Shown here one piece after another: positions 3,147-23,536 of a stretch of DNA of 37,264 nucleotides (positions are counted from its first letter, which is position 1; the number at the start of each line of letters is the position of its first letter). Both the position numbers and the translations under genes were made by a program. The DNA is from Pseudobdellovibrionaceae bacterium (GTDB taxonomy: Bacteria; Bdellovibrionota; Bdellovibrionia; Bdellovibrionales; Bdellovibrionaceae): contig JBDHWW010000030.1 of the NCBI GenBank assembly GCA_039810425.1, positions 1 through 37,264 of the forward strand, read 5' to 3'. The notes beneath the pieces were generated by a model that did no database searches, was not told the origin of the DNA, and saw only the letters and a list, made by a program, of their open reading frames with translations.

Positions 3147-3848
3147 ATGAGTTCCCCTCCAAAAACTCCACTCTGCGAGCCCCAGAGGCCGAGTTGCGAG
3201 AACTGTGGCTCGAAAGCACAAAACATCATTTGTGCCAGCAACCCGAATATTCCCCTTAGCCTTGAGAAGGCTAAAATCCCCTGCCATTTCAAGCGTGATC
3301 AAATTATTTTCTATGCGGAAAACGAACCTCTCGGCTTGTTTTTCGTGCAAAGCGGGCTCGTTAAACTCGAAAAGGTTTCTGAGGACGGCTCCGCTCATAC
3401 GCTGAGAATCATGGGGCCTGGCGGAATTCTGGGCTATCGTTCGCTTTTTGCCAATGAGCCTTACCATGCGACAGCCCTCGCGGTGGATGATGTAGAACTT
3501 TGTTTCGTCCCGAAAGCGGAAATCCTTTCCGTGTTTAAAGATCATCCGGAAGTCGCGTTGCGATTGCTGAACCATGTCGCGAAAGACCTTCGCCAAGCCG
3601 AGGAGCGCTGGGTTGGCCAAATGGATAAGGGGGCTTCCGAAAGAATCGCGGAGGCCTTGATTTTCTTACAGGAACATTTCCACAGTCAAAGTTGGACCCG
3701 GCGCGAGATCGCGGAGTGGGCCGGCACGACTCCTGAAACCGTGATGCGGACTTTGGCCCAATTTGAGAAGGAATCTCTGATTGGCCAAAGCGGCCGCCAT
3801 ATAAATATACTAAACAAAACATTGCTGAAGGAGAGGACTTGCTTTTAG
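3147..3848 (+). CDS. Crp/Fnr family regulator, FNR-like probable Fe-S oxygen sensor
   Basis: N-terminal Cys cluster (CENC-x8-C), internal Cys in 'VELCFVP', cNMP-type beta-roll, HTH 'TRREIAEWAGTTPETVMR'; directly upstream of the cco operon. Confidence 0.9.
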   Translation: MSSPPKTPLCEPQRPSCENCGSKAQNIICASNPNIPLSLEKAKIPCHFKRDQIIFYAENEPLGLFFVQSGLVKLEKVSEDGSAHTLRIMGPGGILGYRSLFANEPYHATALAVDDVELCFVPKAEILSVFKDHPEVALRLLNHVAKDLRQAEERWVGQMDKGASERIAEALIFLQEHFHSQSWTRREIAEWAGTTPETVMRTLAQFEKESLIGQSGRHINILNKTLLKERTCF

Positions 3849-3861
3849 TCTTTATTTCTCC

Positions 3862-3883
3862 AAACATGACCGCCGTCATGTTT
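3862..3883. promoter_or_regulatory. Palindromic Crp/Fnr-type operator AAACATGAC-N4-GTCATGTTT
   Basis: Perfect 9-bp inverted repeat with TGA-N6-TCA core, centred 41.5 nt upstream of ccoI ATG; -10-like TAGTCT at 3902-3907. Confidence 0.7.
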
Positions 3884-3913
3884 CATTTTCCAGAATCTCT
3901 TTAGTCTGGGAAC

Positions 3914-6136
3914 ATGGAAAGTCTCGGTCTCCAAGCCTCAAAATGCCTTTATTGCAAGACTCTGCTTGCGGAACTCGGCAACTCGTTTTGTTGTTCGGCG
4001 TGTGAAGCTCTTTATAAGTTAGAGAACTCTAACGATAAAGGCATTAACGCCATCCATTTTCAACGATTGCTGGAAAAACATCAGGCATTGTCACGGGTCA
4101 TGGCCGAAAGCCTCACCTTTTATGCCGAGGGTCTGCACTGTTCTTCGTGCGTCCACCTCTTAGAACGCCTGCCCGAGTTCAGCGCCCATATTTCTGAGGC
4201 GCGGGTCCATTTCGGCGAATCGACCGTGCACGTGATTTTAAAACCCGGCGCGCCCTCAGCGGCGTGGATGGAAGTCGCGGCAATGATTGAAGAACTCGGC
4301 TATCACCCGACCGCTTTGATTGCGAGCCAAGAGGTGCGCGAAAAGCAAAGACAAGAAAACCGCCGCGCTTTACAGCGCATCGGTGTTGCCGGCGCATGCG
4401 CTGGCAACATGATGCTCTTCGTGGTGCCTGTCTATGGCGGGCTTGAAGGCCCGATGGCGGCACTTTTTAACTGGGTGAGCTTTGGCCTCTTCTTACCGAT
4501 CCTTTTCTACTCCGCCCGCCCGTTTTATCAAGGGGCTTGGAACTTCCTTAAATACCGAGTGATCAATGTCGATTTGCCAATCGTGATTGCGATGTTTTCA
4601 GGCTTCTTGCTTTCGACTTACAACTTGGTGCGGGGCGAAGGACCGGTCTATTACGACTCGACGGCAAGCTTCTTGTTTTTAATTCTTGCCAGCCGATACT
4701 TGTTAAAACGCGTTCAGCAGAAATATCTGCATCAAGACGCGATGCTTGAAGGCATTGAAGGCCGCCGCGACCTGCAGCCCGGCGCTGAGGTCCGCGTTCT
4801 TCAAGGCGAGAAAATTCCTGCGGACGGTGTTTTGCTCAGCGCCCAAGCTGAAGTGGACATGTCCCTTTTTAACGGGGAATCGCTGCCCGAGCAATTCCGC
4901 GAAGGAATGACTCTGTTCGCCGGAAGCCGCCTCTTAAGCCCTGAAGCCCGGCTGCGCATTGAAAAGACCGCTCTCGACACCCGCTGGGGGAAAATCCTGC
5001 AACAGCTTCGTTCTGATTCGGTTCAAAAAAGCCGCTTTATCACTCTGTCAGACAAACTGGCTCAAGCCCTGATTGCCGGAGTTACCGGCCTGGCCATTTT
5101 GTTTTTCATTTTCTACTCACAAGTAAATTTCAACGAGGCCCTTGAAAGAGCGCTCGCCTTGATTGTGATCGCTTGTCCTTGCGCGCTGGCGTTCGGCTCC
5201 CCTCTGGCGTACGGGCTTTCGCTTCGCAAAGCTCAGAAAAAAGGGATTCTCATCCGCCACTCCGATGTTTTTGAAAAGTTGCGGGAGACTAAGAACCTCT
5301 TTTTTGATAAAACCGGCACTCTGACGGAAGGCACTCTCAAATTGGCTTTGGTCGAAGGCGCGCTTTCGGAGGAAGATAAAAAAATCATCCTGGCCCTAGA
5401 AAACCAAAGCACGCATCCGGTGGCCTTTGCACTTCGCCGGGAATGGCCGGGCCTTGGGAGCCTCCCTCTGCAAGACCGCCAAGAAACCCTCGGCCAAGGT
5501 GTCTTTGGCCGCTTCGATGGCAAGCTCTATTCACTGACTCGCAGCCAAGAACTAAACATCCTTGATTACCTCGTTGTCGAGTATCGCGGCGAGGGTCTTT
5601 TAAAGGCTCATCTCTTTTTTGAAGACCCCTTGCGGGCTGAAAGCAAATTCGTGCTCGAAAAATTGCGGGGCTTCAAACTGCACATTCTTTCTGGCGATCG
5701 CAAACGGCGTGTCGCTAAAATCGCCACCTTGTGCCAAATTCCTGAAAGCCAATGTCATGCCGAAATGAGTCCTGAAAAAAAACTCGACGTAGTTCAACAC
5801 TCTTTCCAGAGCTGTATGATCGGCGACGGCGCAAACGATGCCTTGGCATTGAAAGCGGCGGACATCGGGATTGCCGTCAAAGGCAGTGTCGATCTCAGCC
5901 TGATGTCGGCGGATGTGTACTTTACCCGCGGCGGTTTGATGCCGTTCTATGAGCTTTTGCAAATCGCCCGTGACGCCCGCTTCACGGTCCGACGCAATCT
6001 CGCAATTTCGCTTATCTATAACACTTTAGGCGGAGCGCTCGCGCTTGGCGGATTTGTCAGCCCCATGGTGGCTGCGATCTTAATGCCGGTGAGTTCCGTT
6101 TTGATTCTTTTGTCATCACTCCGGGGGACCCGGTGA
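3914..6136 (+). CDS. ccoI: cbb3 oxidase assembly P1B-type (Cu) ATPase CcoI/FixI
   Basis: N-terminal CxxC...FCC, HMA-type CSSC, CPC in TM6, DKTGT, HP, GDGAND, YN and MPVSS; cco operon context. Confidence 0.92.
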   Translation: MESLGLQASKCLYCKTLLAELGNSFCCSACEALYKLENSNDKGINAIHFQRLLEKHQALSRVMAESLTFYAEGLHCSSCVHLLERLPEFSAHISEARVHFGESTVHVILKPGAPSAAWMEVAAMIEELGYHPTALIASQEVREKQRQENRRALQRIGVAGACAGNMMLFVVPVYGGLEGPMAALFNWVSFGLFLPILFYSARPFYQGAWNFLKYRVINVDLPIVIAMFSGFLLSTYNLVRGEGPVYYDSTASFLFLILASRYLLKRVQQKYLHQDAMLEGIEGRRDLQPGAEVRVLQGEKIPADGVLLSAQAEVDMSLFNGESLPEQFREGMTLFAGSRLLSPEARLRIEKTALDTRWGKILQQLRSDSVQKSRFITLSDKLAQALIAGVTGLAILFFIFYSQVNFNEALERALALIVIACPCALAFGSPLAYGLSLRKAQKKGILIRHSDVFEKLRETKNLFFDKTGTLTEGTLKLALVEGALSEEDKKIILALENQSTHPVAFALRREWPGLGSLPLQDRQETLGQGVFGRFDGKLYSLTRSQELNILDYLVVEYRGEGLLKAHLFFEDPLRAESKFVLEKLRGFKLHILSGDRKRRVAKIATLCQIPESQCHAEMSPEKKLDVVQHSFQSCMIGDGANDALALKAADIGIAVKGSVDLSLMSADVYFTRGGLMPFYELLQIARDARFTVRRNLAISLIYNTLGGALALGGFVSPMVAAILMPVSSVLILLSSLRGTR

Positions 6137-6309
6137 ATATCCTTGCTCTCATGATCCCGATGGCACTGATCCTTGGCTTCGGTTTTACGGCGGCCTTTTT
6201 CTGGGCGACCGCCCGAGGACAGTTTGATGACGTTGAAACCCCGGCACACAGAATTTTATTAGATGATCCACAAGAAAGGACTGACCGTGAAAAACCCCGC
6301 ACTCCATAA
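6133..6309 (+). CDS. ccoS: cbb3 oxidase assembly protein CcoS/FixS (58 aa; not in ORF track)
   Basis: Hand translation from GTG: MNILALMIPMALILGFGFTAAFFWATARGQFDDVETPAHRILLDD..., with the W-x4-GQFDD signature; GTGA overlap with ccoI. Confidence 0.9.
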   Translation: MNILALMIPMALILGFGFTAAFFWATARGQFDDVETPAHRILLDDPQERTDREKPRTP

Positions 6310-8434
6310 CAATACGATTCTGGAGAAAATCTTCTACGATGATGACATCGTTAAAAAGTTTCTCCTGGCGACTATAATCTGGGCCGGAGCCGCCTTTATC
6401 TTCGGCTTGATCGCCGCCCTGCAATTGGCCTGGTGGCCGATGAATATGAATTTGGAGTGGGTGACTTTCGGCCGCCTTCGTCCGCTTCATACCAACGCCG
6501 CGATCTTTGCTTTTGCCGGGAATGCGATTTTTGCCGGGATCTATCACTCATCACAAAGGCTGCTAAAGACCCGGATGTTCTCGGACGCCCTCAGTCGCTT
6601 GCACTTTTGGGGCTGGCAGCTGATTATTTTATCCGCTGCGATCACTTTGCCACTGGGCTATTCCCAGTCCAAAGAATACGCGGAGCTTGAATGGCCGATT
6701 GATATCGCGATCACGGTGATCTGGGTGGTCTTTGCCGTGAACTTTTTTGGAACTATCAGCAAACGCCGCGAAAGACATCTCTATGTTGCGATCTGGTTCT
6801 ATATCGCAACAATCATCACCGTCGCGGTTTTGCATATCGTAAACTCGATTGAAATCCCCGTGAGCTTCTTGCAAAGCTATCCGGTCTATGCCGGCATTCA
6901 AGATGCACTGGTACAGTGGTGGTATGGTCACAATGCGGTGGCGTTCTTCCTGACCACTCCGTTCTTGGGCCTGATGTATTACTACGTGCCCAAGGCGGCA
7001 AATCGTCCGGTGTACTCTTATCAGCTTTCGATCATTCACTTCTGGAGCTTGGTCTTTCTTTACATCTGGGCCGGTCCTCACCACTTGCTTTACACTTCTC
7101 TCCCGGAGTGGGCCCAAACCTTGGGCATGGTTTTCAGTCTGATGCTGTGGGCCCCAAGCTGGGGCGGTATGATCAACGGCTTGCTGACTCTGCGTGGAGC
7201 TTGGCACTTGCTCAGAACCGATCCGATCATTAAGTTCTTTGTCACCGCTTTAACTTTCTATGGGATGGCGACCTTTGAAGGTCCATTGCTTTCGATTAAA
7301 TCTGTCAGTGCTCTGGGGCACTACACGGACTGGATTATCGGGCACGTTCACGCCGGCGCCCTCGGCTGGAACGGGATGCTGACTTTCGGCATGATTTACT
7401 TCTTGGTACCACGCCTTTGGAAAACAAAACTCTACTCGGAAAAGCTGGCGACCAATCACTTTTGGATCGCGACTCTCGGAGTCTTGCTGTATTACATTTC
7501 CATGGTCACCGCAGGGATTACGGAAGGTCTCATGTGGCGCGCGCTGACTCCGGAAGGCAAGCTCGTTTATCCGGACTTCATTGAAACCGTTGTGCGTATC
7601 GTACCCCTTTTCTGGGTGCGCGCTCTCGGCGGAACGTTTTTCATCGCCGGCTTCTTCATGATGGTCTACAATGTCTGCAAAACCATCCAGGCCGCGCCGG
7701 CAGAGCAGTCTGACAGTGAAGCCCAAGTGCCCATGCGCAACGCCGTTTTTGCAGAACCAGATCCAAAAGTGGGTCACAGTAAACTTGAAGGCATGGCCAC
7801 GGTTTTCTCAGTCCTTGCATTTATTGCGATTGCTGTAGGCAGTATCATTGAGATCTATCCGACTCTGTCATTACACAAGTACATCACTCCCGCCAATATG
7901 GTCGAGCCTTACACCCCGCTCGAGCTTGCTGGCCGGGATCTCTATGTCAGCGAAGGCTGCTATGTCTGTCACTCCCAGCAGATTCGCCCGATTGCTGCTG
8001 AGGTATTGCGTTACGGAAAAGCGTCAACCATAGAAGAGTCCATGTACGATCGTCCCTTCCAATGGGGCTCAAAACGTATCGGACCGGACCTCGCCCGGGT
8101 TGGCAAGCGGTATCCAAACCTCTGGCACTTCCAGCACATGATCGATCCACGCGCGGTGACTCCGAAATCCATCATGCCGTCCTATGGCTGGATGGTGGAA
8201 AAGGAGACGGATTTCATCATGCTTCGTAAAAAACTTTCGGTGATGAAAACTTTGGGTGTGCCTTATGATGAAGACACCGTGGCGAACGCCGATATTAAAG
8301 CTCAGAAAGAGGCCATGGTGATCGCCGAAGATCTCAAAGCCAACGGCGTGAACATTCCGAAGTTGGAGCAAAAGCAAATCATTGCTCTCATCGCATACTT
8401 GCAAGCATTGGGACAAAAAGGAAAACAGCCATGA
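6287..8434 (+). CDS. ccoN: cbb3-type cytochrome c oxidase fused subunit I/II (CcoN-CcoO)
   Basis: GRLRPLHT, QWWYGHN, WAGPHH, GHVH ligand motifs, then CYVCHSQ heme-c motif and WGSKRIGPDL in one frame; GTG 6287 after AAAGGA SD. Confidence 0.96.
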   Translation: MKNPALHNNTILEKIFYDDDIVKKFLLATIIWAGAAFIFGLIAALQLAWWPMNMNLEWVTFGRLRPLHTNAAIFAFAGNAIFAGIYHSSQRLLKTRMFSDALSRLHFWGWQLIILSAAITLPLGYSQSKEYAELEWPIDIAITVIWVVFAVNFFGTISKRRERHLYVAIWFYIATIITVAVLHIVNSIEIPVSFLQSYPVYAGIQDALVQWWYGHNAVAFFLTTPFLGLMYYYVPKAANRPVYSYQLSIIHFWSLVFLYIWAGPHHLLYTSLPEWAQTLGMVFSLMLWAPSWGGMINGLLTLRGAWHLLRTDPIIKFFVTALTFYGMATFEGPLLSIKSVSALGHYTDWIIGHVHAGALGWNGMLTFGMIYFLVPRLWKTKLYSEKLATNHFWIATLGVLLYYISMVTAGITEGLMWRALTPEGKLVYPDFIETVVRIVPLFWVRALGGTFFIAGFFMMVYNVCKTIQAAPAEQSDSEAQVPMRNAVFAEPDPKVGHSKLEGMATVFSVLAFIAIAVGSIIEIYPTLSLHKYITPANMVEPYTPLELAGRDLYVSEGCYVCHSQQIRPIAAEVLRYGKASTIEESMYDRPFQWGSKRIGPDLARVGKRYPNLWHFQHMIDPRAVTPKSIMPSYGWMVEKETDFIMLRKKLSVMKTLGVPYDEDTVANADIKAQKEAMVIAEDLKANGVNIPKLEQKQIIALIAYLQALGQKGKQP

Positions 8435-8598
8435 AACAAGATGGACTGGCTTTTTTCACTGACACCCAATTAACAGGCCTCGGTTTGGTTATCTTTTTTA
8501 GTTTCTTCATCGGCGTCCTGATTTGGACGTCGCTAAAAGAAAATAAGGCGAACTATCGAAAAATGGAACAAATCCCCCTGACCGACGGAGACAACTAA
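8431..8598 (+). CDS. ccoQ: cbb3 oxidase subunit CcoQ/FixQ (55 aa; not in ORF track)
   Basis: Hand translation MKQDGLAFFTDTQLTGLGLVIFFSFFIGVLIWTSLKENKANYRKMEQIPLTDGDN; one TM; ATGA and TAATG couplings to neighbours. Confidence 0.85.
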   Translation: MKQDGLAFFTDTQLTGLGLVIFFSFFIGVLIWTSLKENKANYRKMEQIPLTDGDN

Positions 8599-9173
8599 TG
8601 AGCGACGATATCAAAAACCAAATCAATGATCCCCTGACAGATCATGAATATGACGGGATTCAAGAGTACGACAACCCCTTGCCGACCTGGTGGCTTTGGA
8701 CGTTCTTTCTGACAATCATCTTCGCCTTTCTTTACGTCCTTCACTATGAAGTGGGCGGCGGACCGACTTTAAAAGATGAACTCGCGGCCTCTATGAAAAA
8801 TCTGGAATCAGCGGCCGCTCAGCACGCGCCGGCTGTGACAGAAACCGAAGAGATGCTTGCTGAGGAAATGAAAAATCCGAAGCTCGTTGAACTTGGGGCG
8901 GTGGCCTTCAACAGCAAATGTGCCGCTTGTCACGGCCCCCAACTGGGTGGCTTGATCGGCCCGAACTTGACTGATAACTTTTGGCTCCATGGCAAAGGAA
9001 CCCGCATGGCTCTCGTTGACGTCATCCGTAAGGGCGTCCCTGAAAAAGGAATGCCGCCCTGGGAAAGCATGTTGTCAAGAGATGAGGTTTACGGCTTAGC
9101 GGCGTATATTTTATCTAAAAAAGGTAGCAACCCGCCAAATGCGAAGGCTCCCCAAGGGGACGAGATCAAATAA
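8598..9173 (+). CDS. ccoP: cbb3 oxidase subunit III CcoP, short monoheme form
   Basis: 'HEYDGIQEYDNPLPTWW' N-terminal signature, single CAACH, GPNLTD, GMPPW. Confidence 0.92.
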   Translation: MSDDIKNQINDPLTDHEYDGIQEYDNPLPTWWLWTFFLTIIFAFLYVLHYEVGGGPTLKDELAASMKNLESAAAQHAPAVTETEEMLAEEMKNPKLVELGAVAFNSKCAACHGPQLGGLIGPNLTDNFWLHGKGTRMALVDVIRKGVPEKGMPPWESMLSRDEVYGLAAYILSKKGSNPPNAKAPQGDEIK

Positions 9174-9184
9174 ATGAGGAAAGT

Positions 9185-10588
9185 ATGGCTTTAGATCCGG
9201 AAAGACTCACAAGTATCGATGAATTCGGCGACCGTGCATACATCATTCCCGCAGAAGTCCGGGGATTTTTCCACAAGCACCGTCGCTGGACACAGTTCGT
9301 TTTGCTTGCGATCTTTCTGGGCCTGCCTTGGACCCAAATCAACGGCGAACAAAGTATTTTGCTCAACATCCCCGCCCGCAAGTTTGCGATTTTTGGAATC
9401 ACATTCTGGGCCCACGATGCCCCGTTGATTTTCTTCGTTCTCGCCACCGTCACACTGGGCCTTGCCTTTGTAACTTCCATCTGGGGACGTGTGTGGTGTG
9501 GCTGGGCGTGCCCCCAGACCGTGTTTATTGATGCGGTTTTCCGTCGTATTGAGCAGCTCGTTCAAGGAAACTACATTCAACGGCGGCAACTTCGCCAAGC
9601 AGATATGAGTTTCAAGAAATTTATCAAACTCACATTGACTTGGATTCTTTTTACCCTGGTTTCATCGCTCATCGCGCATAGCTTTGCCGCGTACTTCGTG
9701 GGATCGGAAGCGCTGGTTAAAATGATTCAGGAAAGTCCTTCGCAGCAATGGGATACTTTCTTATTCGTGAGCTTTATGACAGCCGCCGTGCTGTTTGATT
9801 TTGGCTGGTTCCGTGAACAGTTCTGTATCATCATGTGCCCTTACGGCCGCTTCCAAAGCGTCTTACTTGACCAGAAATCGCTTGCGATCGTCTATGACGA
9901 ATCCCGCGGCGAACCCCGCAAAGGCAAAGTTCCTCCGGGGGAAAAACAAGGCGATTGCGTCAGCTGCAATCGTTGCGTGCAAGTCTGCCCGACGGGAATC
10001 GACATCCGCAAAGGCCTGCAAATGGAGTGTATCGCCTGCACGGCCTGTGCTGATGCCTGCGATGAGATCATGACGAAGGTCAAAAAACCGACAGGGTTGA
10101 TTGGTTACAAAACTCTGGATCGCAGCCCGGTGAGTTTGAAAAAACCCCGTTCGATCATTTACATGATCCTTATTCTTCTGTCGGTTTCAGGACTGGCTTA
10201 CAACGTCGCGACCCGCGAAACGGCGCAGGTCTTTGTTCTGCGCGCTAAAGAAGCGCCTTATACTCAAATTAAAAGCGAGACCGGTGAAGATCTGATTCTC
10301 AACCACTTCCGCTTGCAGATTCAAAATCAGAACTTTAAGAAAGCTATTTACTTGCTGCGCCCACCGGCCGACTGGGCAGCGCAAGGCATTGCACTCACGA
10401 TTGCGCAAAATCCGCTCGATCTCGATCCGGGTAAAATGACAGAGTGGCACTTCTTTGTGCGCTTTAAACCGGGCCTTGTTGCCAAAACTGGCCAGCTCAA
10501 AACAAAAATTTTGCTACTTGACCAGAACGAAGTTGAAAAACCGTTTGAAACCGAAAAAGAAATTATTCTCGTAGGACCCAAACAATGA
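9185..10588 (+). CDS. ccoG: cytochrome c oxidase accessory protein CcoG/FixG (4Fe-4S, Cu reductase)
   Basis: GRVWCGWACPQT, FCIIMCPYGRFQ, CVSCNRCVQVCPTG and CIACTACADAC motifs, C-terminal Ig-like domain. Confidence 0.95.
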   Translation: MALDPERLTSIDEFGDRAYIIPAEVRGFFHKHRRWTQFVLLAIFLGLPWTQINGEQSILLNIPARKFAIFGITFWAHDAPLIFFVLATVTLGLAFVTSIWGRVWCGWACPQTVFIDAVFRRIEQLVQGNYIQRRQLRQADMSFKKFIKLTLTWILFTLVSSLIAHSFAAYFVGSEALVKMIQESPSQQWDTFLFVSFMTAAVLFDFGWFREQFCIIMCPYGRFQSVLLDQKSLAIVYDESRGEPRKGKVPPGEKQGDCVSCNRCVQVCPTGIDIRKGLQMECIACTACADACDEIMTKVKKPTGLIGYKTLDRSPVSLKKPRSIIYMILILLSVSGLAYNVATRETAQVFVLRAKEAPYTQIKSETGEDLILNHFRLQIQNQNFKKAIYLLRPPADWAAQGIALTIAQNPLDLDPGKMTEWHFFVRFKPGLVAKTGQLKTKILLLDQNEVEKPFETEKEIILVGPKQ

Positions 10589-11217
10589 GTTCGCTCCTGT
10601 TGCCTCTTGCGATCCTCACTTCGAGTTTTCTCGGAAGCTGGCACTGCGCCGGGATGTGCGGGCCCTTCGCGGCTCTGACGGGATCGCGCGGGCAGCTCTG
10701 GCACTATCACCTCGGCCGCTTGCTGGTGTACGTGGGCCTTGGCGCGCTTGCCGGCTTCTTCGGTGACTTCGTGATGAGTTCGGAATTCCGCTGGGTCCGT
10801 CTGGTCGGCGCGGGTCTGCTGGGCTTCACCCTTATTGCTTTGGGTTTACAGTATTTTTTTTCTTTTGATTGGGGTGCGCGTTCGCATTTTTTTGCGGCGG
10901 CGTTTTTTCAAGATCTCTATCGCCGCCTTCGCGCCTGGAAATTCGGCCGCAGCAGCTTTGTGATTGGGCTCCTGGCGGGTTTGCTGCCCTGCATGTGGCT
11001 TTACACCTACGTGACGGCGGCTGCGGCGAGCAAAAGTCCGTTTGCCGGCGGCCTCCTGATGGCTTTGTTCTGGCTGGGCGGCCTCCCGGCATTGAGCGCC
11101 GTTTCTCTCATGGTGCGCCCATCTATGCTAAAAGCAAATATACGCAAGCAGAAAATTGCCGGCGGAGTTCTTGTCGTGTCTGGGCTCTATGCCTTGGGCT
11201 CCCACTGGCTGGTCTAA
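10585..11217 (+). CDS. DsbD_2 / TauE-SafE-like membrane protein of cco clusters
   Basis: 'GSWHCAGMCGP', 'YHLGRL', 'GLLPC' motifs; ATGA overlap with ccoG. Confidence 0.88.
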   Translation: MSSLLLPLAILTSSFLGSWHCAGMCGPFAALTGSRGQLWHYHLGRLLVYVGLGALAGFFGDFVMSSEFRWVRLVGAGLLGFTLIALGLQYFFSFDWGARSHFFAAAFFQDLYRRLRAWKFGRSSFVIGLLAGLLPCMWLYTYVTAAAASKSPFAGGLLMALFWLGGLPALSAVSLMVRPSMLKANIRKQKIAGGVLVVSGLYALGSHWLV

Positions 11218-15265: not shown

Positions 15266-16512
15266 AAATCATCGCAGCTATCGGAATTTTGACACTGGCC
15301 ATGCAAACGTCTGCGCAGGTAAAGCTGGGCTTTGAGGACGCCGTGAACGGTGCCGTCAAAAAAATCGAAGAAGTTCAAGCCAAGGAATCCGAACTCCGTT
15401 CTGCTGAAAGTGCCCGCCTGCAATCGCAAATGCGTTTCTTGCCTGACTTGAGTCTTTCAGGAACTTATTTGGAGATCGGCCCCGATCTCGACAATCATTA
15501 TGTTTCACGCAGCTATGGACTTCGCTCGAACTGGAATCTCTTCCGTTTTGGCGGTGATTACTTCTACTACCGAGCCGCCGATTCAGCAACCACCAGTCTT
15601 CGCTGGGATTTGCAGGCCACCAAGATCCGCATGGAGGGGGCCATCGCGGGAAAAGCCTTGGATTATATCTCGGCTCACTTAGAAACCGAGATCCGCAAAA
15701 AAATCACCGAGGCACAAAGAGTTTACTTGAATGTCGCTGAAAAGCGTTACAGCAAAGGGATCCTTTCGCGCCAAGAATTAGATCAGGTCACCATCGACTT
15801 AAAGAATGCCGAAGCCCGCGTAACAGATGCTGAGTTGGCTGAAGTTCAAGCTAAAGAAGCACTTCAGGTCTACATCCCAGGTGTTGAAATTGAAACAGCT
15901 TGGCCGTGGGCTGTTCAGCTTAGAAAAATGAAAAAGAAGACTTTGAGTTTTTCTGCGCAAAACCATCCCGAGTGGCAGACATTCCAAAACAAAACGGACG
16001 CTGCGGACTATGCACGCAAGAGCAAGTTTGCTGAGATCTTCCCGTCTTTGGACTTTACCCTCACATACGGCAACGAGCGCAGTGCTGCGACCAACGATCT
16101 TTGGACTCCGCAATGGGTGGGCGGCGTGACCTTGACAGTTCCGCTGTTCAGCCGTTTAGAAAACTACACCGCTTACCGCCAGGCGGCCGAACTCAAACTT
16201 CGCAGCGAACTGGACCTGCAACGTTCGCAACGAGACCTCGAGGCGCAATGGAAGGTGTCTGAAAACGACTTTCGCGTTCAGCTCGATTCGGCCCTGACCC
16301 GTGAGCAGACTTTGAAAATTTCCAGCAACCTATATCAGGACAACTTGAAGCGCTTCCAGGCCGGCCGCAGCACCGCCAATGATCTCTTGAATGATCAGGA
16401 GCGCTACTACCAGTCACAGCTCTTATCCATCCAAGGCTGGAAGGCCGCGCACTCGTCGTATATCCGCCTCTGTCACTCGCTCGGCCAACTTGCCAGCGAG
16501 TGCAGACTTTAA
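15262..16512 (+). CDS. TolC family outer membrane protein
   Basis: Two OEP-like repeats ('FLPDLSL...RYSKGILS', 'FPSLDF...RFQAGRST'); signal peptide; ATGA overlap with the pump gene. Confidence 0.9.
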   Translation: MKIIAAIGILTLAMQTSAQVKLGFEDAVNGAVKKIEEVQAKESELRSAESARLQSQMRFLPDLSLSGTYLEIGPDLDNHYVSRSYGLRSNWNLFRFGGDYFYYRAADSATTSLRWDLQATKIRMEGAIAGKALDYISAHLETEIRKKITEAQRVYLNVAEKRYSKGILSRQELDQVTIDLKNAEARVTDAELAEVQAKEALQVYIPGVEIETAWPWAVQLRKMKKKTLSFSAQNHPEWQTFQNKTDAADYARKSKFAEIFPSLDFTLTYGNERSAATNDLWTPQWVGGVTLTVPLFSRLENYTAYRQAAELKLRSELDLQRSQRDLEAQWKVSENDFRVQLDSALTREQTLKISSNLYQDNLKRFQAGRSTANDLLNDQERYYQSQLLSIQGWKAAHSSYIRLCHSLGQLASECRL

Positions 16513-16648: not shown

Positions 16649-16999
16649 TTAGACGAGATCACGGCCGTTAAACTTCATGATTTCGAACTTATCGATATCA
16701 ACATGGTCGAGGCAGCGGGCATTGATCGCGCGCGAGACTTCACCGCCCGGCTTTTTACCCATGCCGAAAGGGCCGATTCCGCAGTTCGTGCAGAAGTAGT
16801 GATGAATCACTTTCTTATTGAACAAATATTCTTTTAAAGAGTCTTCACCCTTTAAAAGTTTAAACTGACTTTCTGGCGCAAACGCCAGCAAGTGGCCTTT
16901 CTTGTGACAGATAGAACAGTTGCAAGAAATGAGCTTATCAATCTCCATTTCAACTTCGAAGCGGACATTGCCACAGTGACAACCGCCGGTGTATTTCAT
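16649..16999 (-). CDS. GFA / CENP-V family Zn protein
   Basis: MKYTGGCHCG, CNCSIC, FCTNCG motifs; AGGAG SD before ATG 16999. Confidence 0.92.
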   Translation of the reverse strand: MKYTGGCHCGNVRFEVEMEIDKLISCNCSICHKKGHLLAFAPESQFKLLKGEDSLKEYLFNKKVIHHYFCTNCGIGPFGMGKKPGGEVSRAINARCLDHVDIDKFEIMKFNGRDLV

Positions 17000-17046
17000 A
17001 TTTTTCTCCTTGAATTCAAAAATTTTAAGCTGGCCATCGTATTGAT

Positions 17047-20000
17047 TCAATAAAAATACTGCGTGGGCTCTAGCGGCAACGGTGTCGTATCCAAGTGCGC
17101 GGTATTCCATACGGGCTTAATCCTATCGACGAGTAAACTCGTGGTATTTCCGTCCTTCTGCACCACTCCGCCCACTGTAATGAAGCAATGATTCAGAAAT
17201 ACTTCGCGGTATTTTTCAAAATTCTTGCGCCACAGAATAATATCAATGAACCCGAACTCATCTTCCATTGTGCAGAAGCAAACGCCCTTTGCGGTCGGCG
17301 GTTTTTGTCGGATCAAAACCAAACCCGTCACGGTGAGCCTTCGGCCATTTACAGATTCGCGCAATGTTTTAGAAGTGTCTTTAGCAATCCCCGGCAGGTT
17401 CTTACGGATTTCTGCCATTGGATGACCGTGGGTGGAAATCGAAAAGGCCTCGTAATCGGTTTGAATTTTTTCAAAACCATCCAGCTTCTGAAACCCAATT
17501 TGCGTCGATGACATCGGAACGACTTCTAGATCACTAAAAAAGCTCAACTGGTTTCCAACCGGCTTTTGAAACATATTTTGATATTCAAGCACAGCCCACA
17601 GCGCTTCGCGCGTGTCCCATTGGAATTCTTCAAAACGGCCGGCCATGGCCATCCTATGTAGAACCTCCTTTTTCAGCTTTGAGCGGCGAACAAAATCCCC
17701 GAGGCTGCGGAATCGCTCGCGCCTCCGCTCTTGTATCAAAAAATCGACATCTTTCTTGGCAATACCGTTTGTCACCCGAAAGCCCAGGCGAATCGTATGG
17801 GGCCCCGCAATCGCGCAATCCCATTCAGAGTGCAGCACCGACACTGGCAAAACTCTGACACCATGCCTAAGGGCATCGTAAATAATCGTATCGTTACGAT
17901 AGAATCCCATCGGCTGGCTATTCACAAGCGAGCAGGCAAACTCCGCCGGATGATGGCATTTCAAATAGCAACTGGCGTAGGCGAGCAGCGCAAATGAGGC
18001 CGAGTGGCTTTCTGGAAAACCGTAATGGCTGAAACCTTGAATCTGATCAAAGATCTGATTGGCAAAGGCCTCGGTCATTCCGTTATTGAGGAGTCCTCGC
18101 TTAAGTCGGTCGGCCATAACACCAATAGGAGCACTACTACGCCAAGCATTGATAGATTTACGAAGGACATCGGCTTCTCCTGGGGTAAAGTTCGCGAGAT
18201 CAATCGCGAGTTTCATAATCTGTTCTTGGAACAAGGGTACGCCCAATGTTTTACCAAGCACGCGTTTCACGACTTCATTGGGATATTCAATTTTTTCAAG
18301 TCCCCGCCGGCGCTTAAGATACGGGTGAATCATATTGCCGACAATGGGACCAGGACGGACAATGGCGACTTCGACAACAAGATCATAAAAATTCCGTGGC
18401 TTAAGCCGTCCCAGCATCTGCATCTGCGCCCGCGATTCGATCTGAAAGGTTCCGACGGTGTCGCGCTCACAAATCATATCGTAGGTTGCTTTGTCATCCT
18501 GTGGAATTTCATAGAGCTTCTTTCCCGTCAGTTTCAAAGATTTTTGTAAACAACTGAGCATTCCGAGCGAAAGAATATCCACTTTGATAAGCCCTAAAGT
18601 ATCTAAGTCATACTTATCCCATTGAATAATAGTGCGCCCATCCATACGAGCAGGTTCAACAGGCACAATATCCACAATTGGGTCTGCACTGAGTGTGAAC
18701 CCTCCGCTATGAATGGAAATATGGCGTGGGAAATTAATAATCGCATCGGTAATTGTGTCGATTTTTTGGCGTAACTTCCCGGGCTCTGGCGTATCTTTAA
18801 CGAGTTCATTGAAATCCCTTTCTACTTTCTTTGCTGAAAGCGCGCCGACAGACAGTCCAAAAGCTTTGCAAACCTCACGAAAAGCGCTGCGATTCTGATA
18901 AGTAATCACAGCACTCACCATGGCCGCGCGATGGCGACCATACTTTTCGTAAATGTACTGAATCACCTCTTCCCGGCGTTCATGCTCAAAATCGATATCA
19001 ATATCCGGCGGCTCACCACGCTCGACACTAATAAAGCGTTCAAATAAAAGATCCATCTGTATCGGATCAATCGCCGTAATTCCCAGCACGTAACACACCA
19101 CCGAGTTTGCTGCCGAGCCACGGCCCTGGCAGAGAATATCTTTTTTCTTTGCGAACTCGACGATGTCATAAATCGTTAAAAAATAATCTGCGAATTTAAG
19201 CTCCTGAATGAGGCTAAGCTCATGCAGGAGCTGCTGCTTTACCCGGTCGGACATCCCCTTCGGGTAGCGCTCCGGCGCATTTTTCCAAATCAGGTGTTCC
19301 AAGTAAGACTGAGCCTCGAACCCCACTGGAATCCATTCCGACGGATAGCGATAGCGCAATTCCGACGGAGAAAATGTACAGGCTTGTGCGATTTCCAGGG
19401 TCTTTAAGAGCGACCCCGGAAAATCCTTATAGAGTAATTCCATTTGCGCAGGTGTTTTGAGGTATCTCTCGGCGTTCGGCTGAAGTTTAAAGCCGATTTC
19501 CTGCAATGTTTTTCCTTCACGGATTGAAATCAAAACATCCTGAATCATCTTTCGCTTATTCTCGTGATACTCCACATCATTTGATGCCACAAGTGGCAGA
19601 TCAAAATACCGTGAGTACTCTGTCAGCTCCGCGACCCGCTTCTTGTCGTTGCCATCCAAATAAATGGTCAAAGGCAAAGACACTTGCGCGGCACCGAAGA
19701 CTTCTTTCAGATCACCGACGCGAGTTTCTTTAGAAACTCTTGGCAAGACAAAAACCTCTGGCGACTTTTGCATTCCCAAAAACTCTAAAAAGGTCGAAAA
19801 CTCCAAATGAGTTTTTCCTTTTTCATTGCCGCGCTTTGCTTTTGTCAGCAACTGGCAGATGCGGCCATAGGATGCGCGGGTTTGAGCGAGCACCGTGATA
19901 TTCGGATGATCTACAAACACGCATTCAGTACCGACAAGATACTTAAAATCAGGATGACCTTTAGCAACCTGGTAACCTCTTGGCATTCCATACACACCAT

Positions 20001-20124
20001 CCAAATCCGTGATAGCAATTCCACTCAATCCCTGAGCAATCGCAGTTTCAACAAGCTCCGCCGGGTGAGAGGCTCCGGTTAAAAAGCTGAAATTCGATTT
20101 TGCGCGTAACTCGACGTAACTCAT
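17047..20124 (-). CDS. dnaE2: Error-prone DNA polymerase DnaE2 (ImuC)
   Basis: Degenerate PHP ('ELRAKSNFSFL'), GRGSAANS, PPDIDIDFE, KVDIL, GFPESHSASFA, C-terminal OB fold 'RQKPPTAKGV'; imuAB context. Confidence 0.96.
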   Translation of the reverse strand: MSYVELRAKSNFSFLTGASHPAELVETAIAQGLSGIAITDLDGVYGMPRGYQVAKGHPDFKYLVGTECVFVDHPNITVLAQTRASYGRICQLLTKAKRGNEKGKTHLEFSTFLEFLGMQKSPEVFVLPRVSKETRVGDLKEVFGAAQVSLPLTIYLDGNDKKRVAELTEYSRYFDLPLVASNDVEYHENKRKMIQDVLISIREGKTLQEIGFKLQPNAERYLKTPAQMELLYKDFPGSLLKTLEIAQACTFSPSELRYRYPSEWIPVGFEAQSYLEHLIWKNAPERYPKGMSDRVKQQLLHELSLIQELKFADYFLTIYDIVEFAKKKDILCQGRGSAANSVVCYVLGITAIDPIQMDLLFERFISVERGEPPDIDIDFEHERREEVIQYIYEKYGRHRAAMVSAVITYQNRSAFREVCKAFGLSVGALSAKKVERDFNELVKDTPEPGKLRQKIDTITDAIINFPRHISIHSGGFTLSADPIVDIVPVEPARMDGRTIIQWDKYDLDTLGLIKVDILSLGMLSCLQKSLKLTGKKLYEIPQDDKATYDMICERDTVGTFQIESRAQMQMLGRLKPRNFYDLVVEVAIVRPGPIVGNMIHPYLKRRRGLEKIEYPNEVVKRVLGKTLGVPLFQEQIMKLAIDLANFTPGEADVLRKSINAWRSSAPIGVMADRLKRGLLNNGMTEAFANQIFDQIQGFSHYGFPESHSASFALLAYASCYLKCHHPAEFACSLVNSQPMGFYRNDTIIYDALRHGVRVLPVSVLHSEWDCAIAGPHTIRLGFRVTNGIAKKDVDFLIQERRRERFRSLGDFVRRSKLKKEVLHRMAMAGRFEEFQWDTREALWAVLEYQNMFQKPVGNQLSFFSDLEVVPMSSTQIGFQKLDGFEKIQTDYEAFSISTHGHPMAEIRKNLPGIAKDTSKTLRESVNGRRLTVTGLVLIRQKPPTAKGVCFCTMEDEFGFIDIILWRKNFEKYREVFLNHCFITVGGVVQKDGNTTSLLVDRIKPVWNTAHLDTTPLPLEPTQYFY

Positions 20125-20209: not shown

Positions 20210-21493
20210 TCAATCAAACTCTCCCTGCAAAAAATCCCCCTGGGCCGTCCGGTACAACCAGAGCTGGCGTCCCTTGCGGGTCGTCAGCCGGTAGTACACT
20301 CTTTCGAGAGAGTTTTCCCACCATTCTGAGAAAACAATCTCGCGGTTTTCGAGGCTTACCACCTCGTCGACATTGTCATCCCAGCAGAGATGCTTACCCC
20401 AGAAGTGCACCTGGCTCGGCGACGGCAGAAGTCGTAGGGGACGCTCCGCCAGGCGGTCCACGGGAGGGGGAATCTTGGGTGGCTCGGCTTCCCTCTCCCA
20501 GGTCTTCTCGGGTATATAACTCTCCCGTATCCGCGTGAAGAAAACTGCTTTTTCTCCAATTCGCGTCGCGACTCGCGATACGAATTGAAAAAAAGACTCT
20601 TCGTTCTCCTCCCGACGCTGATTAAATAAACTCTTTTGGTTCATGGCATACGGGATTTCTTCGGTGACAACTAACGAGAACTCCGTGATACGGTGCCGGA
20701 TCGGCTTTGCCGCCATTTGCGCGTCAACCATTTCCTTTGCCACTTGCAGAATCACTTTTTGCGATACATATGGAAGCTGCAGACAGATCGAAATTTTATA
20801 ATCTTGCTCTGCCGGATTCAGCGCATGTTCTTGACGAAGAATAATATCAAACTGGCGAGCCCGCTTGCCTTTGCCTCGCAGCCGTAACTGCATGCGATCC
20901 AGCATCGTCTTCATCTTGAAATAAACCGGCTCGAGATTGTCGACCGGACTTTCCAGATCAAATTCATGACGCTCCGTAATCACTTCACTGGGCTTAAACG
21001 CTTTCCATGGCACCGGGCTTTCACCCATCACACGGTAATAAGCCATCAGCCCCACAGTACTAAAACGCGTACTGATCTCACGCACGGAAAACTTCAAAAA
21101 ATCTTTCAGAGTGCGAACGCCGAGGCTTTTTAAAAGCTCCGTCATTTTTACGACTTTCTGAGTGAGTTCCACTTGTTCCCCGAGCGGATCGAAATAGTAT
21201 TTCAAAGTGTCAATCGGCAGCGCGAGTTTGTCCCGTTGGTCCAACACCGCAAACGACAAGGCCGTGGGCACATCCTCACCAACTCCGATCTTGGCCCGCA
21301 CTCCCGCTTTTCGCAGTGTAACCAGCGTCCGTTGAATAAAGGTATTCACCGAATAAAGCCCTAAGCACTTCGATATATCCATGAAGAGGAAGCGGTCCCC
21401 CCGGGTCATCACCTGAGGAGTTGCACGATAAAAAATTTCTGCAAGGGCTTGCAGGTTTTGCGGTTGTTCGAATTCTAAGCATACGACTGTCAT
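20210..21493 (-). CDS. imuB: ImuB, catalytically inactive Y-family polymerase homolog
   Basis: Y-family palm/thumb remnants lacking catalytic acidic motifs, clamp-type motif QKSLF, ImuB-C signatures 'RPLRLL', 'WW', 'RVYYR', 'LWLYR...GEFD'. Confidence 0.88.
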   Translation of the reverse strand: MTVVCLEFEQPQNLQALAEIFYRATPQVMTRGDRFLFMDISKCLGLYSVNTFIQRTLVTLRKAGVRAKIGVGEDVPTALSFAVLDQRDKLALPIDTLKYYFDPLGEQVELTQKVVKMTELLKSLGVRTLKDFLKFSVREISTRFSTVGLMAYYRVMGESPVPWKAFKPSEVITERHEFDLESPVDNLEPVYFKMKTMLDRMQLRLRGKGKRARQFDIILRQEHALNPAEQDYKISICLQLPYVSQKVILQVAKEMVDAQMAAKPIRHRITEFSLVVTEEIPYAMNQKSLFNQRREENEESFFQFVSRVATRIGEKAVFFTRIRESYIPEKTWEREAEPPKIPPPVDRLAERPLRLLPSPSQVHFWGKHLCWDDNVDEVVSLENREIVFSEWWENSLERVYYRLTTRKGRQLWLYRTAQGDFLQGEFD

Positions 21494-22032
21494 CCCATCC
21501 TCCTTTTTTCGGTTTCAATATTGAAACCAAGTTTTTTCTTCGAAACCTTTAATTGTAAATTCGGCACCCAGCATTGATGCATATCCTCAGACAAAAGAAA
21601 AAAGTGGGCACCGCATCTCTCAGAGAGAAGCTGATAGCGTCTTAAATCTTTTTCGTCAGTCGGTCGGTCTACATCAAGATTAGTTACTAAGGCTTGAAAA
21701 CATCCTGATTGGAGAGCTTGATTGACACACCAAGCAAGTTGCTTTCCAGCTTCAATAAATAATACATTTTCTGTCTTCACCCCTTTTTGAAAAAGCGCGT
21801 AGGGGTTGATCGTTAACTCCTTTTCGATCCAAACCACTTTCATGTCTGGATGTTCTTTCAGAAACAAACTCACTAACTCCGTTTTGCCAAAACCGCTGAT
21901 TTCAATAATCGAGCCCTTTGGGAAACCCCCGCGAAACAAAGAAAAATCGCTCTTTTCCCTCTCAAGGTGCTGGGCCGAGCCAATAAGCTGCCTTAGCTCC
22001 TCGAGAGAGGGCTTCACTAGAACTAAGCTCAT
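21490..22032 (-). CDS. imuA: ImuA, RecA-like mutasome protein
   Basis: 'GGFPKGSIIEISGFGKTE' degenerate Walker A, 'LRRYQL'; position between lexA and imuB. Confidence 0.85.
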   Translation of the reverse strand: MSLVLVKPSLEELRQLIGSAQHLEREKSDFSLFRGGFPKGSIIEISGFGKTELVSLFLKEHPDMKVVWIEKELTINPYALFQKGVKTENVLFIEAGKQLAWCVNQALQSGCFQALVTNLDVDRPTDEKDLRRYQLLSERCGAHFFLLSEDMHQCWVPNLQLKVSKKKLGFNIETEKRRMG

Positions 22033-22047
22033 ATGTTTTATTACCTG

Positions 22048-22641
22048 TTATTGGAAGCGCAGCAGTCCGCAGTAAATTCCTGAGATCTTCAGTTGCCGAT
22101 CCTCTTCCACAATAATGGGCTTGTATTGAGGATTGGCGGAATGTAATTCGACATGATCCCGCTTCTTGTAAAAACGTTTGATCGTCGCTTCATCATCAAC
22201 TTCAGCAACGACGATCTCGCCGTTGGTGGCAGATTCTTGGCTGCGGATCACAACGTAATCACCATCAAGAATGCCCTCACCGATCATCGAATCCCCGGAA
22301 ACCTGCAGAGCAAAATACTCGCCGGCCCCCTTAAGCATACTGAGAGGCACTTCGATGCGTTCGTTAAATTTACGGTTCTCGATAGGGCGGCCCGCGGCCA
22401 CCTTACCGAGCAGAGGAACCAAGTTCCCCTCTTTGTGAACGGTCAGACTCTGAGAAAGATGGCGCTCCTTGGTCAGGTAACCTTTCTTTGTCAAAGCTTC
22501 GACATAGTGCTGTACCGAAGACTTTGTCGCATAGCCAAAATGCTTCGCGATGGTTTCGTAGGTCGGAGGGAAGCCGTTTTTTTCTTGATACTTCTCGATG
22601 TACTCGAGAACTTTCTTTTGATTTGCAGTTAAATTTTGCAT
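22048..22641 (-). CDS. lexA: LexA repressor
   Basis: wHTH 'LTANQKKVLEYI...GFPPTYETIA', VAAG cleavage site, GDSM Ser, TIKR Lys; AAGGAG SD favours ATG 22641 (GTG 22644 possible). Confidence 0.96.
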   Translation of the reverse strand: MQNLTANQKKVLEYIEKYQEKNGFPPTYETIAKHFGYATKSSVQHYVEALTKKGYLTKERHLSQSLTVHKEGNLVPLLGKVAAGRPIENRKFNERIEVPLSMLKGAGEYFALQVSGDSMIGEGILDGDYVVIRSQESATNGEIVVAEVDDEATIKRFYKKRDHVELHSANPQYKPIIVEEDRQLKISGIYCGLLRFQ

Positions 22642-22716
22642 CACACTCTCCTTACTACTTTCTTCATCCCACGTTGCTTCTCTGGCTAGGTCTCGCGGGC
22701 GGCCTCTTTACACACT

Positions 22717-22785
22717 CGTACTTTTAACGCACCTTCGTGCCCGTACATTTCCCGTACTTTGAATATAACCGTACATTTCCCGTAC
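22717..22785. promoter_or_regulatory. Three candidate LexA operators, CGTAC-N6-CGYAC (GTAC-N7-GTAC)
   Basis: Exact 17-mer CCGTACATTTCCCGTAC at 22741-22757 and 22769-22785; one-mismatch box CGTACTTTTAACGCAC at 22717-22732. Confidence 0.75.
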
Positions 22786-22791
22786 CGGCAA
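22762..22791 (-). promoter_or_regulatory. lexA cassette promoter TTGCCG-N18-TATATT
   Basis: -35 at 22791-22786, -10 at 22767-22762; one repeat fills the spacer and one lies just downstream. Confidence 0.65.
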
Positions 22792-22830
22792 GAGGGGTCT
22801 CGTGTTTTTTTTAACTTTTTTCGTAAACCT

Positions 22831-22859
22831 TTGAAATCACGTGATAGATGCACTACGGT
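22831..22859 (+). promoter_or_regulatory. Candidate SRAP promoter TTGAAA-N17-TACGGT with palindrome ATCACGTGAT
   Basis: Hexamers at 22831-22836 and 22854-22859; perfect 10-bp palindrome 22836-22845. Confidence 0.45.
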
Positions 22860-22867
22860 AGGACCTT

Positions 22868-23536
22868 ATGTGTGCACAATACATTGTGAAGCTCCAGGCC
22901 CTAGATCTAGAAACCCTCTTTGGAATTTCCATTTCGAGCGGCACTCCTCCCTGGGTTGAACGGATCACCCCCTACACCAACGCCCCGGTTTTGACCCACG
23001 ATGGAGCGCACCTGATGAACTTCTCTCTGATCCCTTCCTGGGCGGCTGAGAGGAAACAGAAATTCGCCACTTATAATGCACGGATTGAAACGGTGATTGA
23101 GAAGCCGACGTGGCGGCAGCCTTTCGAGAGTAAGCGCTGCCTCGTTCCCATGAGCAAATTCGTTGAACCGATCTATGAACATGAATACGCCGGCAACATG
23201 GTGGCCTTTGAACGCAAAGATCACGAGCCTCTTTTCGCTGCGGGAATTTATGATCACTGGATGGATAAAAAAACCGGCGAAGAGGTCGCAAGCTTCGCCC
23301 TTCTGACCTCGCCGGCTCTAGCCTTCGTTCATCGCATCGGCCACGAGCGCAGTCCGATCTTTCTGCCGAAAGAGTCTTTCGCCGCGTGGACAAAGCCGGA
23401 GAAACAAAATCCGCAAAAGCTGGTGCAGTACTTACGTGAGCATCGCCTGAATCCGCCGCTCATAGTGGAGAAAGATCGCCCCATGAAAGTCGGCTGGGAA
23501 AAGCACAAACCCCCAAGGAGACTTGCGTCTCAATAG
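22868..23536 (+). CDS. SOS response-associated peptidase (SRAP; YedK/HMCES family) abasic-site protector
   Basis: Cys2, 'TYNARIET', 'RCLVP..FVEP' Glu, 'GHERSPIFL' His; adjacent to mutasome. Confidence 0.93.
   Translation: MCAQYIVKLQALDLETLFGISISSGTPPWVERITPYTNAPVLTHDGAHLMNFSLIPSWAAERKQKFATYNARIETVIEKPTWRQPFESKRCLVPMSKFVEPIYEHEYAGNMVAFERKDHEPLFAAGIYDHWMDKKTGEEVASFALLTSPALAFVHRIGHERSPIFLPKESFAAWTKPEKQNPQKLVQYLREHRLNPPLIVEKDRPMKVGWEKHKPPRRLASQ

Follow-up and report, generated by a model that had tools for sequence, protein, structure and literature searches.

LexA boxes are highly variable, with 17 motifs reported by 2021, and new motifs have been tied to duplication of lexA (PMC8565304). The box of Alphaproteobacteria (Caulobacter) is GTTC-N7-GTTC (PMC9578287, Table 1; PMC8565304), and that of cyanobacteria is given as RGTACNNNDGTWCB (PMC3091678). 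Pseudomonas LexA2 has the box GTAC-N4-GTRC (PMC5544203), and in Pseudomonas putida a second LexA is encoded within, and controls, the lexA2-imuA-imuB-dnaE2 operon (PMC3901139). The LexA of Balneolaeota has an EMSA-validated direct repeat with the printed consensus TTACACATATTTTWTACATA (PMC7739468), and its regulon contains translesion polymerases together with an SOS peptidase (PMC7739468; PMC8565304). For Bdellovibrio bacteriovorus, the LexA box is cited as TTAC-N3-GTAA (PMC8565304; PMC3323433).

We analyzed a 37,264-nucleotide stretch from a Pseudobdellovibrionaceae bacterium (contig JBDHWW010000030.1; hereafter, the window), in which boxes built on GTAC-N7-GTAC precede a lexA paralogue (lexA2) at the head of a mutagenesis cassette; the other lexA of this genome is called lexA1. 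The alphaproteobacterial box is like the window boxes in being a direct repeat with an 11-bp period and a G-T-x-C half-site, and exactly this box is carried by a sister clade of LexA2 with His44; however, the middle base in the window is A and not T, GTTC halves are found only in the His44 relatives, and the window LexA2, with Gln44, lies outside the alphaproteobacterial clade and has no recA or uvrA site. Alphaproteobacterial LexA tolerates the variant GAAC-N7-GTAC. The P. putida system has the same operon design and also a GTAC half-site, but its box is N4-spaced whereas the window box is an N7 direct repeat; the cyanobacterial box, again with a GTAC half-site, is a pseudo-palindrome with N4 spacing. 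The Balneolaeota box, like the window box, is a direct repeat with TAC cores, and it is close to the lexA1 box; nevertheless, its half-site is TTACA instead of GTACG, its consensus as printed exceeds the 11-bp period of the window by two bases, and the phylum is a different one. B. bacteriovorus belongs to the same order, but its TTAC-N3-GTAA box belongs to the other paralogue, LexA1, and is absent from the window boxes and from the whole promoter region (22642-22867). The B. bacteriovorus LexA is said to have a small regulon around a mutagenesis cassette.

A GTAC-N7-GTAC LexA box was not found in the literature searched, the scope of which left most subscription papers, CollecTF and RegPrecise outside. 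The preliminary description of this DNA had considered the motif unlike known boxes, and within this scope no published GTACG form was found; such a box could still stand in a figure or supplement of the literature beyond it.

The lexA2 promoter and its cassette

The features of the locus are as follows.

22868..23536, plus strand: SRAP (SOS response-associated peptidase) gene, PF02586 E 4e-35; divergent from lexA2, with a common intergenic region
22786..22791, minus strand: predicted -35 hexamer TTGCCG (promoter scan)
22770..22785, minus strand: box 1, GTACG-GGAAAT-GTACG, occupying the spacer between -35 and -10
22762..22767, minus strand: predicted -10 hexamer TATATT (promoter scan), between boxes 1 and 2
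22742..22757, minus strand: box 2, GTACG-GGAAAT-GTACG, covering the predicted start of transcription
22717..22732, minus strand: box 3, GTGCG-TTAAAA-GTACG, a weaker site in the leader
22048..22641, minus strand: lexA paralogue (LexA2), 197 aa, ATG start at 22641; TIGR00498, helix 3 TKSSVQHY with Gln44
21490..22032, minus strand: imuA-like gene, NF033429 E 8e-17, below cut-off
20210..21493, minus strand: imuB-like gene, weak Pol IV matches only, between imuA and dnaE2
17047..20124, minus strand: dnaE2 (imuC), error-prone polymerase, PRK05672 1180 bits (cut-off 939)

The LexA2 protein (queries covered 22048-22638, lacking the initial Met only) matched TIGR00498 over its full length with 184 bits against a cut-off of 110.95, and its LexA DNA-binding (PF01726) and S24 peptidase (PF00717) domains were above cut-off. 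In alignment to E. coli LexA, the cleavage site Ala83-Gly84 and the dyad Ser118/Lys155 are intact. The cassette had been named lexA-imuA-imuB-dnaE2 from the letters and reading frames, and the profile matches for LexA and DnaE2 agree with this naming, with weaker matches on the imuA- and imuB-like genes. A family search found recA and two uvrA genes in the window genome. The genome also has two lexA genes, the second of which is on contig C58 and encodes a protein 45% identical to LexA2; neither this second lexA nor the SRAP gene figured in the preliminary description. The design is a lexA before imuA-imuB-dnaE2 and a second lexA elsewhere in the genome. A GFA-family gene (16649-17110, minus strand) directly follows dnaE2 and may belong to the same operon. 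Farther away, at 3147-11217 on the plus strand, the window has an ordinary-looking cbb3-type oxidase cluster with FixG, a P-type ATPase and a Crp/Fnr regulator, and with a fused subunit I-II gene at 6263-8434.

The exact 17-bp repeat CCGTACATTTCCCGTAC occurs twice in the window (22741-22757 and 22769-22785), and the third box with one mismatch, CGTACTTTTAACGCAC, is at 22717-22732, as first described. Two GTAC-N7-GTAC matches in the window compare with 0.07 expected, a count reached by 0 of 100 shuffles, and the half-site spacing is seven in all three boxes and in the orthologues. The sole promoter-like match in 22600-22900, where 0.2 would be expected, was TTGCCG-N18-TATATT on the minus strand (22791-22762), which places the predicted transcription start at ~22755, under box 2. 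The autorepression geometry put forward earlier thus stands on these predicted elements, with the boxes covering the spacer and the predicted start of the lexA2 promoter. In most relatives the -35 is TTGAAG and overlaps the first half-site, and part of the conservation of box 1 could come from the overlapping -35/-10 elements.

Conservation across orthologous loci

For comparison, lexA loci were drawn from 121 family, 384 order and 301 phylum genomes, along with metagenome contigs and titled genomes; a quick tree was made for a 93-row set and a careful tree for 42 rows. The homologues of the window LexA2 are named Bdellovibrionaceae or Bdellovibrionales, and the closest titled record is that of Bdellovibrio sp. 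HCB337 (85% identical), a named, completely sequenced strain which has the GTACG form. The LexA2 clade is well supported (99 SH-aLRT with 22 rows in the quick tree; 100/99 with 10 representatives in the careful tree) and was found, at E below 1e-80, in 21 of the 384 order genomes, spread over four families.

After removal of identical loci and of one locus with no upstream DNA (L154), 26 core-clade loci remained, and boxes were found in all of them (GTAC in 18, GTTC in 8), so that a direct-repeat box is kept upstream of orthologous lexA genes. Each of the 18 distinct loci with Gln44 shows two or more GTAC-N7-GTAC boxes, in a constant promoter register, and at the corresponding place the eight sister loci with His44 each show two GTTCG-N6-GTTC boxes. 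The position of box 1 is the same in 26/26 loci; in relatives, it follows a TTG at a distance of a few bases and closely precedes a TA-rich, -10-like hexamer. The distance from the start of box 1 to that of box 2 is 26-28 bp in 21 of the 22 tabulated loci and 38 bp in the remaining one, and one locus (L148) has three overlapping box matches. Box 3 occurs as a full box elsewhere only in a 99%-identical relative (L003). In another locus (L268:1501-1954), a lexA2 duplicate has lost most of its DNA-binding domain, with both GTACG boxes kept.

Conceivably, the repeat could be a local 17-bp duplication, or a constraint of the promoter sequence, with no operator function. The two window copies are identical down to the spacer, short and close exact repeats are common in this genome (282 seeds), and bare GTAC-N7-GTAC is not enriched genome-wide, where its 15 matches against ~11 expected are at background and other spacings from 0 to 15 give 5-35. 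Yet in many relatives the spacers differ between the two boxes while all four half-sites are kept, which argues against neutral duplication, and in one genome (G194), in which lexA2 stands apart from the cassette, the box recurs before both lexA2 and the detached imuA-imuB. We regard a repeat without operator function as exceedingly improbable; the boxes are conserved and probably a functional operator of the cassette-specific LexA.

Symmetry of the box

The preliminary description had taken the motif as both a direct and an inverted repeat, possibly bridging the two classes of LexA boxes, and this was not borne out. Self-complementarity of GTAC would allow an inverted repeat intermediate between palindromic and direct-repeat boxes, and GTAC half-sites do occur in the N4-spaced boxes printed for cyanobacteria (PMC3091678) and Pseudomonas LexA2 (PMC5544203). 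However, among the sites of 14 Gln44 loci, the base after GTAC is G in 29/29 first halves and 28/29 second halves, whereas the C which a palindrome requires before the opposite half was found in 0/29 on either side; over the four flank positions, agreement was 65/116 as a direct repeat versus 6/116 as an inverted repeat. In the His44 sister clade both halves have changed to GTTC in the same orientation (GTTC...GTTC, not GTTC...GAAC), and the halves found with related Bdellovibrionota LexAs, TTACG or TTACA, are non-palindromic and have the same period. An inverted repeat is accordingly very unlikely. From the flanks and the sister clade, the self-complementarity of GTAC is incidental and the boxes are head-to-tail direct repeats, for which the position weight matrices (PWMs) give the repeat unit GTACG, an 11-bp period and an A-rich spacer. 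The GTACG box is a new sequence variant inside the known direct-repeat class of LexA boxes.

Distribution of the box and a probable private regulon

A PWM made from 23 sites of 11 other loci returned the three window boxes as the top three matches in 3.5 Mb (31.9 for box 2, 23.9 for box 1 and 18.5 for box 3, the next match being at 17.3 inside a gene). With a larger PWM of 31 sites, the lexA2 promoter came first among 3173 upstream regions with a score of 32.0, and the runner-up reached 14.6. Across the matrices, made without the window genome for box 1, box 1 scored 23.9-24.2, box 2 remained the top match of the genome with 31.9-32.0, and box 3 fell to 16.3 with the larger one. Sites before recA and uvrA, which had been suggested, were absent in the PWM scan of the window genome, in which no LexA2-type site was found before recA (-6.4), the two uvrA genes (-4.0, -2.6) and lexA1 (-0.7), nor before ruvB, recN and uvrB (-5.9 to -8.3).

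Among relatives, GTTCGA-N4-TGTTCGA occurs exactly twice per genome in 5/5 His44 genomes, only before lexA2, and a loose GTWCK pattern in five distant genomes was at control level with lexA sites only. The exact 16-mer pattern was found at lexA2 alone in genome G020, and at lexA2 and four other places in G050, where an extra perfect box (L229:1501-1516) lies beside unrelated genes, and the 1.5 kb around it showed no SOS gene; G366 has two extra box matches inside or beside unrelated genes. In G071, the same pattern occurs 11 times as one repeated sequence, GTACGATGCGGGTACG (L214, L218, L222, L225, L228), and the spacing of several copies at ~1.49 kb suggests a tandemly repeated unit. The box is near-exclusive to the lexA2-cassette promoter, which is indicative of a small private SOS circuit with putative LexA2 binding, insulated from LexA1.

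The second LexA and its TTACA boxes

In the lexA1 promoter of the window genome (L002:1439-1476; G000:C58 ~15914-15951), two TTACA-N6-TTACA repeats converge on an N4 junction, and the forward one closely resembles the Balneolaeota consensus. With a LexA1 PWM, these two boxes rank first and no strong site was found outside the lexA1 promoter in the window genome (next 14.2), so that LexA1 may have lost the cassette as a target to LexA2 in the genus of the window genome. Across the family, among the 82 of 85 LexA1 loci with enough upstream DNA, the repeat, forward or reverse, is present in 80 and is steadier than the strict TTAC-N3-GTAA palindrome, present in 54; the N4 form occurs in 5. The usual arrangement is a forward TTACA-N6-TTACA, often followed by a reverse copy, and several promoters have one repeat only. 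The published TTAC-N3-GTAA palindrome may mark the point where two direct repeats converge; what speaks against this reading is that the reverse copy in most lexA promoters of genus g10 has a 12-bp period.

As the genome has two lexA genes, the window boxes might be bound by the LexA of contig C58, or else by an unrelated regulator, and in genus g10 a detached cassette does share its box type with the single lexA. Nevertheless, lexA1 has TTACA boxes of its own and the LexA1 PWM scores -9.7 at the lexA2 promoter; the box changes with residue 44 of LexA2 while LexA1 of the same genomes keeps a constant helix 3 (SFNSVQNY); and in four of the five GTACG genomes tested the LexA2-type gene is the only full lexA. 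Binding by another regulator is highly improbable on these grounds, and LexA2 remains the candidate by far preferred. Cassettes without the LexA2 paralogue carry the other type of box: TACA-N7-TACA is exact and forward in 13 of 14 promoters of genus g10 and reverse in the fourteenth, and elsewhere a TTACA repeat was found in 8/14 loci, several of the six misses being cut by contig ends. Box type therefore follows the paralogue.

Residue 44 and the type of box

When the 14 GTAC loci are compared with the 8 GTTC loci, a single column of the DNA-binding domain, position 44, has no residue in common, and the other 11 separating columns are all at residue 75 or later. Gln44 of LexA2 aligns to Glu44 of E. 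coli LexA, one of the five helix-3 DNA contacts listed in PMC3091678. In a wider set of 56 rows (63 minus seven without a direct-repeat call, with motif classes partly assigned by eye), TAC or TAT cores accompany Gln44 in 42/42, and TTC cores accompany His44 in 9/10 and Asn44 in 2/2; the single Ser44 (L015) and Thr44 (L016) rows have TAC-type boxes. L152, with His44, has TAC boxes as well; taken with the Ser44 and Thr44 rows, it shows that TAC boxes do not depend on Gln44 and that His44 is not enough for TTC boxes. Among 51 rows of the Bdellovibrionota clade, TTC needs three changes, namely in the sister clade, in L280 (His44, GTTCGG repeat) and in L289/L042 (Asn44, TTTCA-N6-TTTCA repeat). The link between residue 44 and the box rests on two to three independent events and is not significant: well-supported branches offer only two independent pairs, for which the sign test gives p 0.5-1.

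We also considered Lys/Arg40 as the reader of the first G, which fits many rows, but L015, L027 and L285 have the G without Lys/Arg. Two further loci (L293, L294) encode a LexA with the helix SLGHVQHF and have no clear repeat upstream, whereas in a Gribaldobacteria-titled locus and a metagenome locus (L168, L054, L049) His44 proteins go with GTTCG or TTCGG repeats of 11-bp period.

It is a tentative proposal, to which we give somewhat less than an even chance, that Bdellovibrionota LexAs read 11-bp direct repeats by a small residue code, that Gln44His turns GTAC-N7-GTAC into GTTC-N7-GTTC, and that the alpha-type box re-arose at least twice in the phylum from TAC-type ancestors.

Relation to alphaproteobacterial LexA

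Three alphaproteobacterial LexAs that we compared have the helix ASKSGIHRL or RSKSGIHRL and GAAC-N7-GAAC in their promoters. The likeness of the LexA2 recognition helix to this type, drawn in the preliminary description, holds in part: Lys40-Ser41 is common to both, but the alphaproteobacterial proteins have His in place of Gln44, as the GTTC sister-clade relatives do, and the DNA-binding domains are only 22-25% identical. The tree splits alphaproteobacterial LexA from the Bdellovibrionota rows (99/95), with one long Xanthomonas row falling among the latter, and a joint clade of the three alphaproteobacterial rows with 10 core rows was rejected (AU p=0.0025). Owing to the low identity, the split and this rejection, the sister clade's GTTC boxes are best taken as convergent with the alphaproteobacterial box. 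The LexAs of Bacillota, Actinomycetota, Geobacter and Brocadiaceae, on the other side, are split (100/98; 97) from those of Alphaproteobacteria, L049 and all Bdellovibrionota rows, which hints at one origin of direct-repeat reading instead of several in a thinly sampled, unrooted tree whose only gammaproteobacterial row is the long Xanthomonas one, inside this group.

The SRAP side of the intergenic region

Control of the SRAP gene, too, by these boxes would be compatible with LexA2 autorepression. The divergent arrangement of SRAP and lexA2 recurs in at least three lineages (window, L003 and L032; L016 and L041; L312), and an SOS peptidase is described in the Balneolaeota LexA regulon (PMC7739468; PMC8565304). 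Against this, a plus-strand hexamer pair read by eye at 22831-22859 is 45 bp beyond box 1, the promoter scan found no plus-strand promoter in 22600-22900, and most core-clade loci have no SRAP match; we hold such co-control to be rather unlikely. The hexamer pair, TTGAAA-N17-TACGGT, is a possible SRAP promoter, and a perfect 10-bp palindrome, ATCACGTGAT, lies within it at 22836-22845.

Discussion

We consider it very probable that the boxes are a head-to-tail operator, GTACG-N6-GTACG, bound by the LexA2 encoded downstream; as long as DNA is undamaged, this protein would keep its own lexA-imuA-imuB-dnaE2 operon repressed. The observed side of this explanation consists of the boxes, their promoter register and conservation, the direct-repeat symmetry, the near-exclusive site and the intact LexA residues. 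By analogy with the LexA family, a LexA2 dimer would sit on each box, with the half-sites one helical turn apart; occupancy of box 1 would block the spacer and that of box 2 the start site. RecA on single-stranded DNA would then bring about self-cleavage of LexA2 at Ala83-Gly84 by Ser118/Lys155, and the promoter would be freed. Going by covariation, residue 44 of helix 3 may read the central half-site base, Gln going with TAC and His with TTC. The outcome would be the private circuit, insulated from a LexA1 that has TTACA boxes.

A mutagenesis cassette controlled by LexA2 is a known design, which the present finding extends and does not overturn. Both products of a lexA duplication are present here, and each paralogue has a direct-repeat box to itself; the added value is a natural Gln/His pair at residue 44. 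Between close orthologue groups the boxes differ by one base and the DNA-binding domains consistently at one contact residue, and the change in specificity is therefore testable with two proteins and two probes. If the residue code is true, proteins that are 65-69% identical would offer a one-residue, one-base handle on the divergence of SOS boxes and on the recognition of direct repeats by a LexA dimer.
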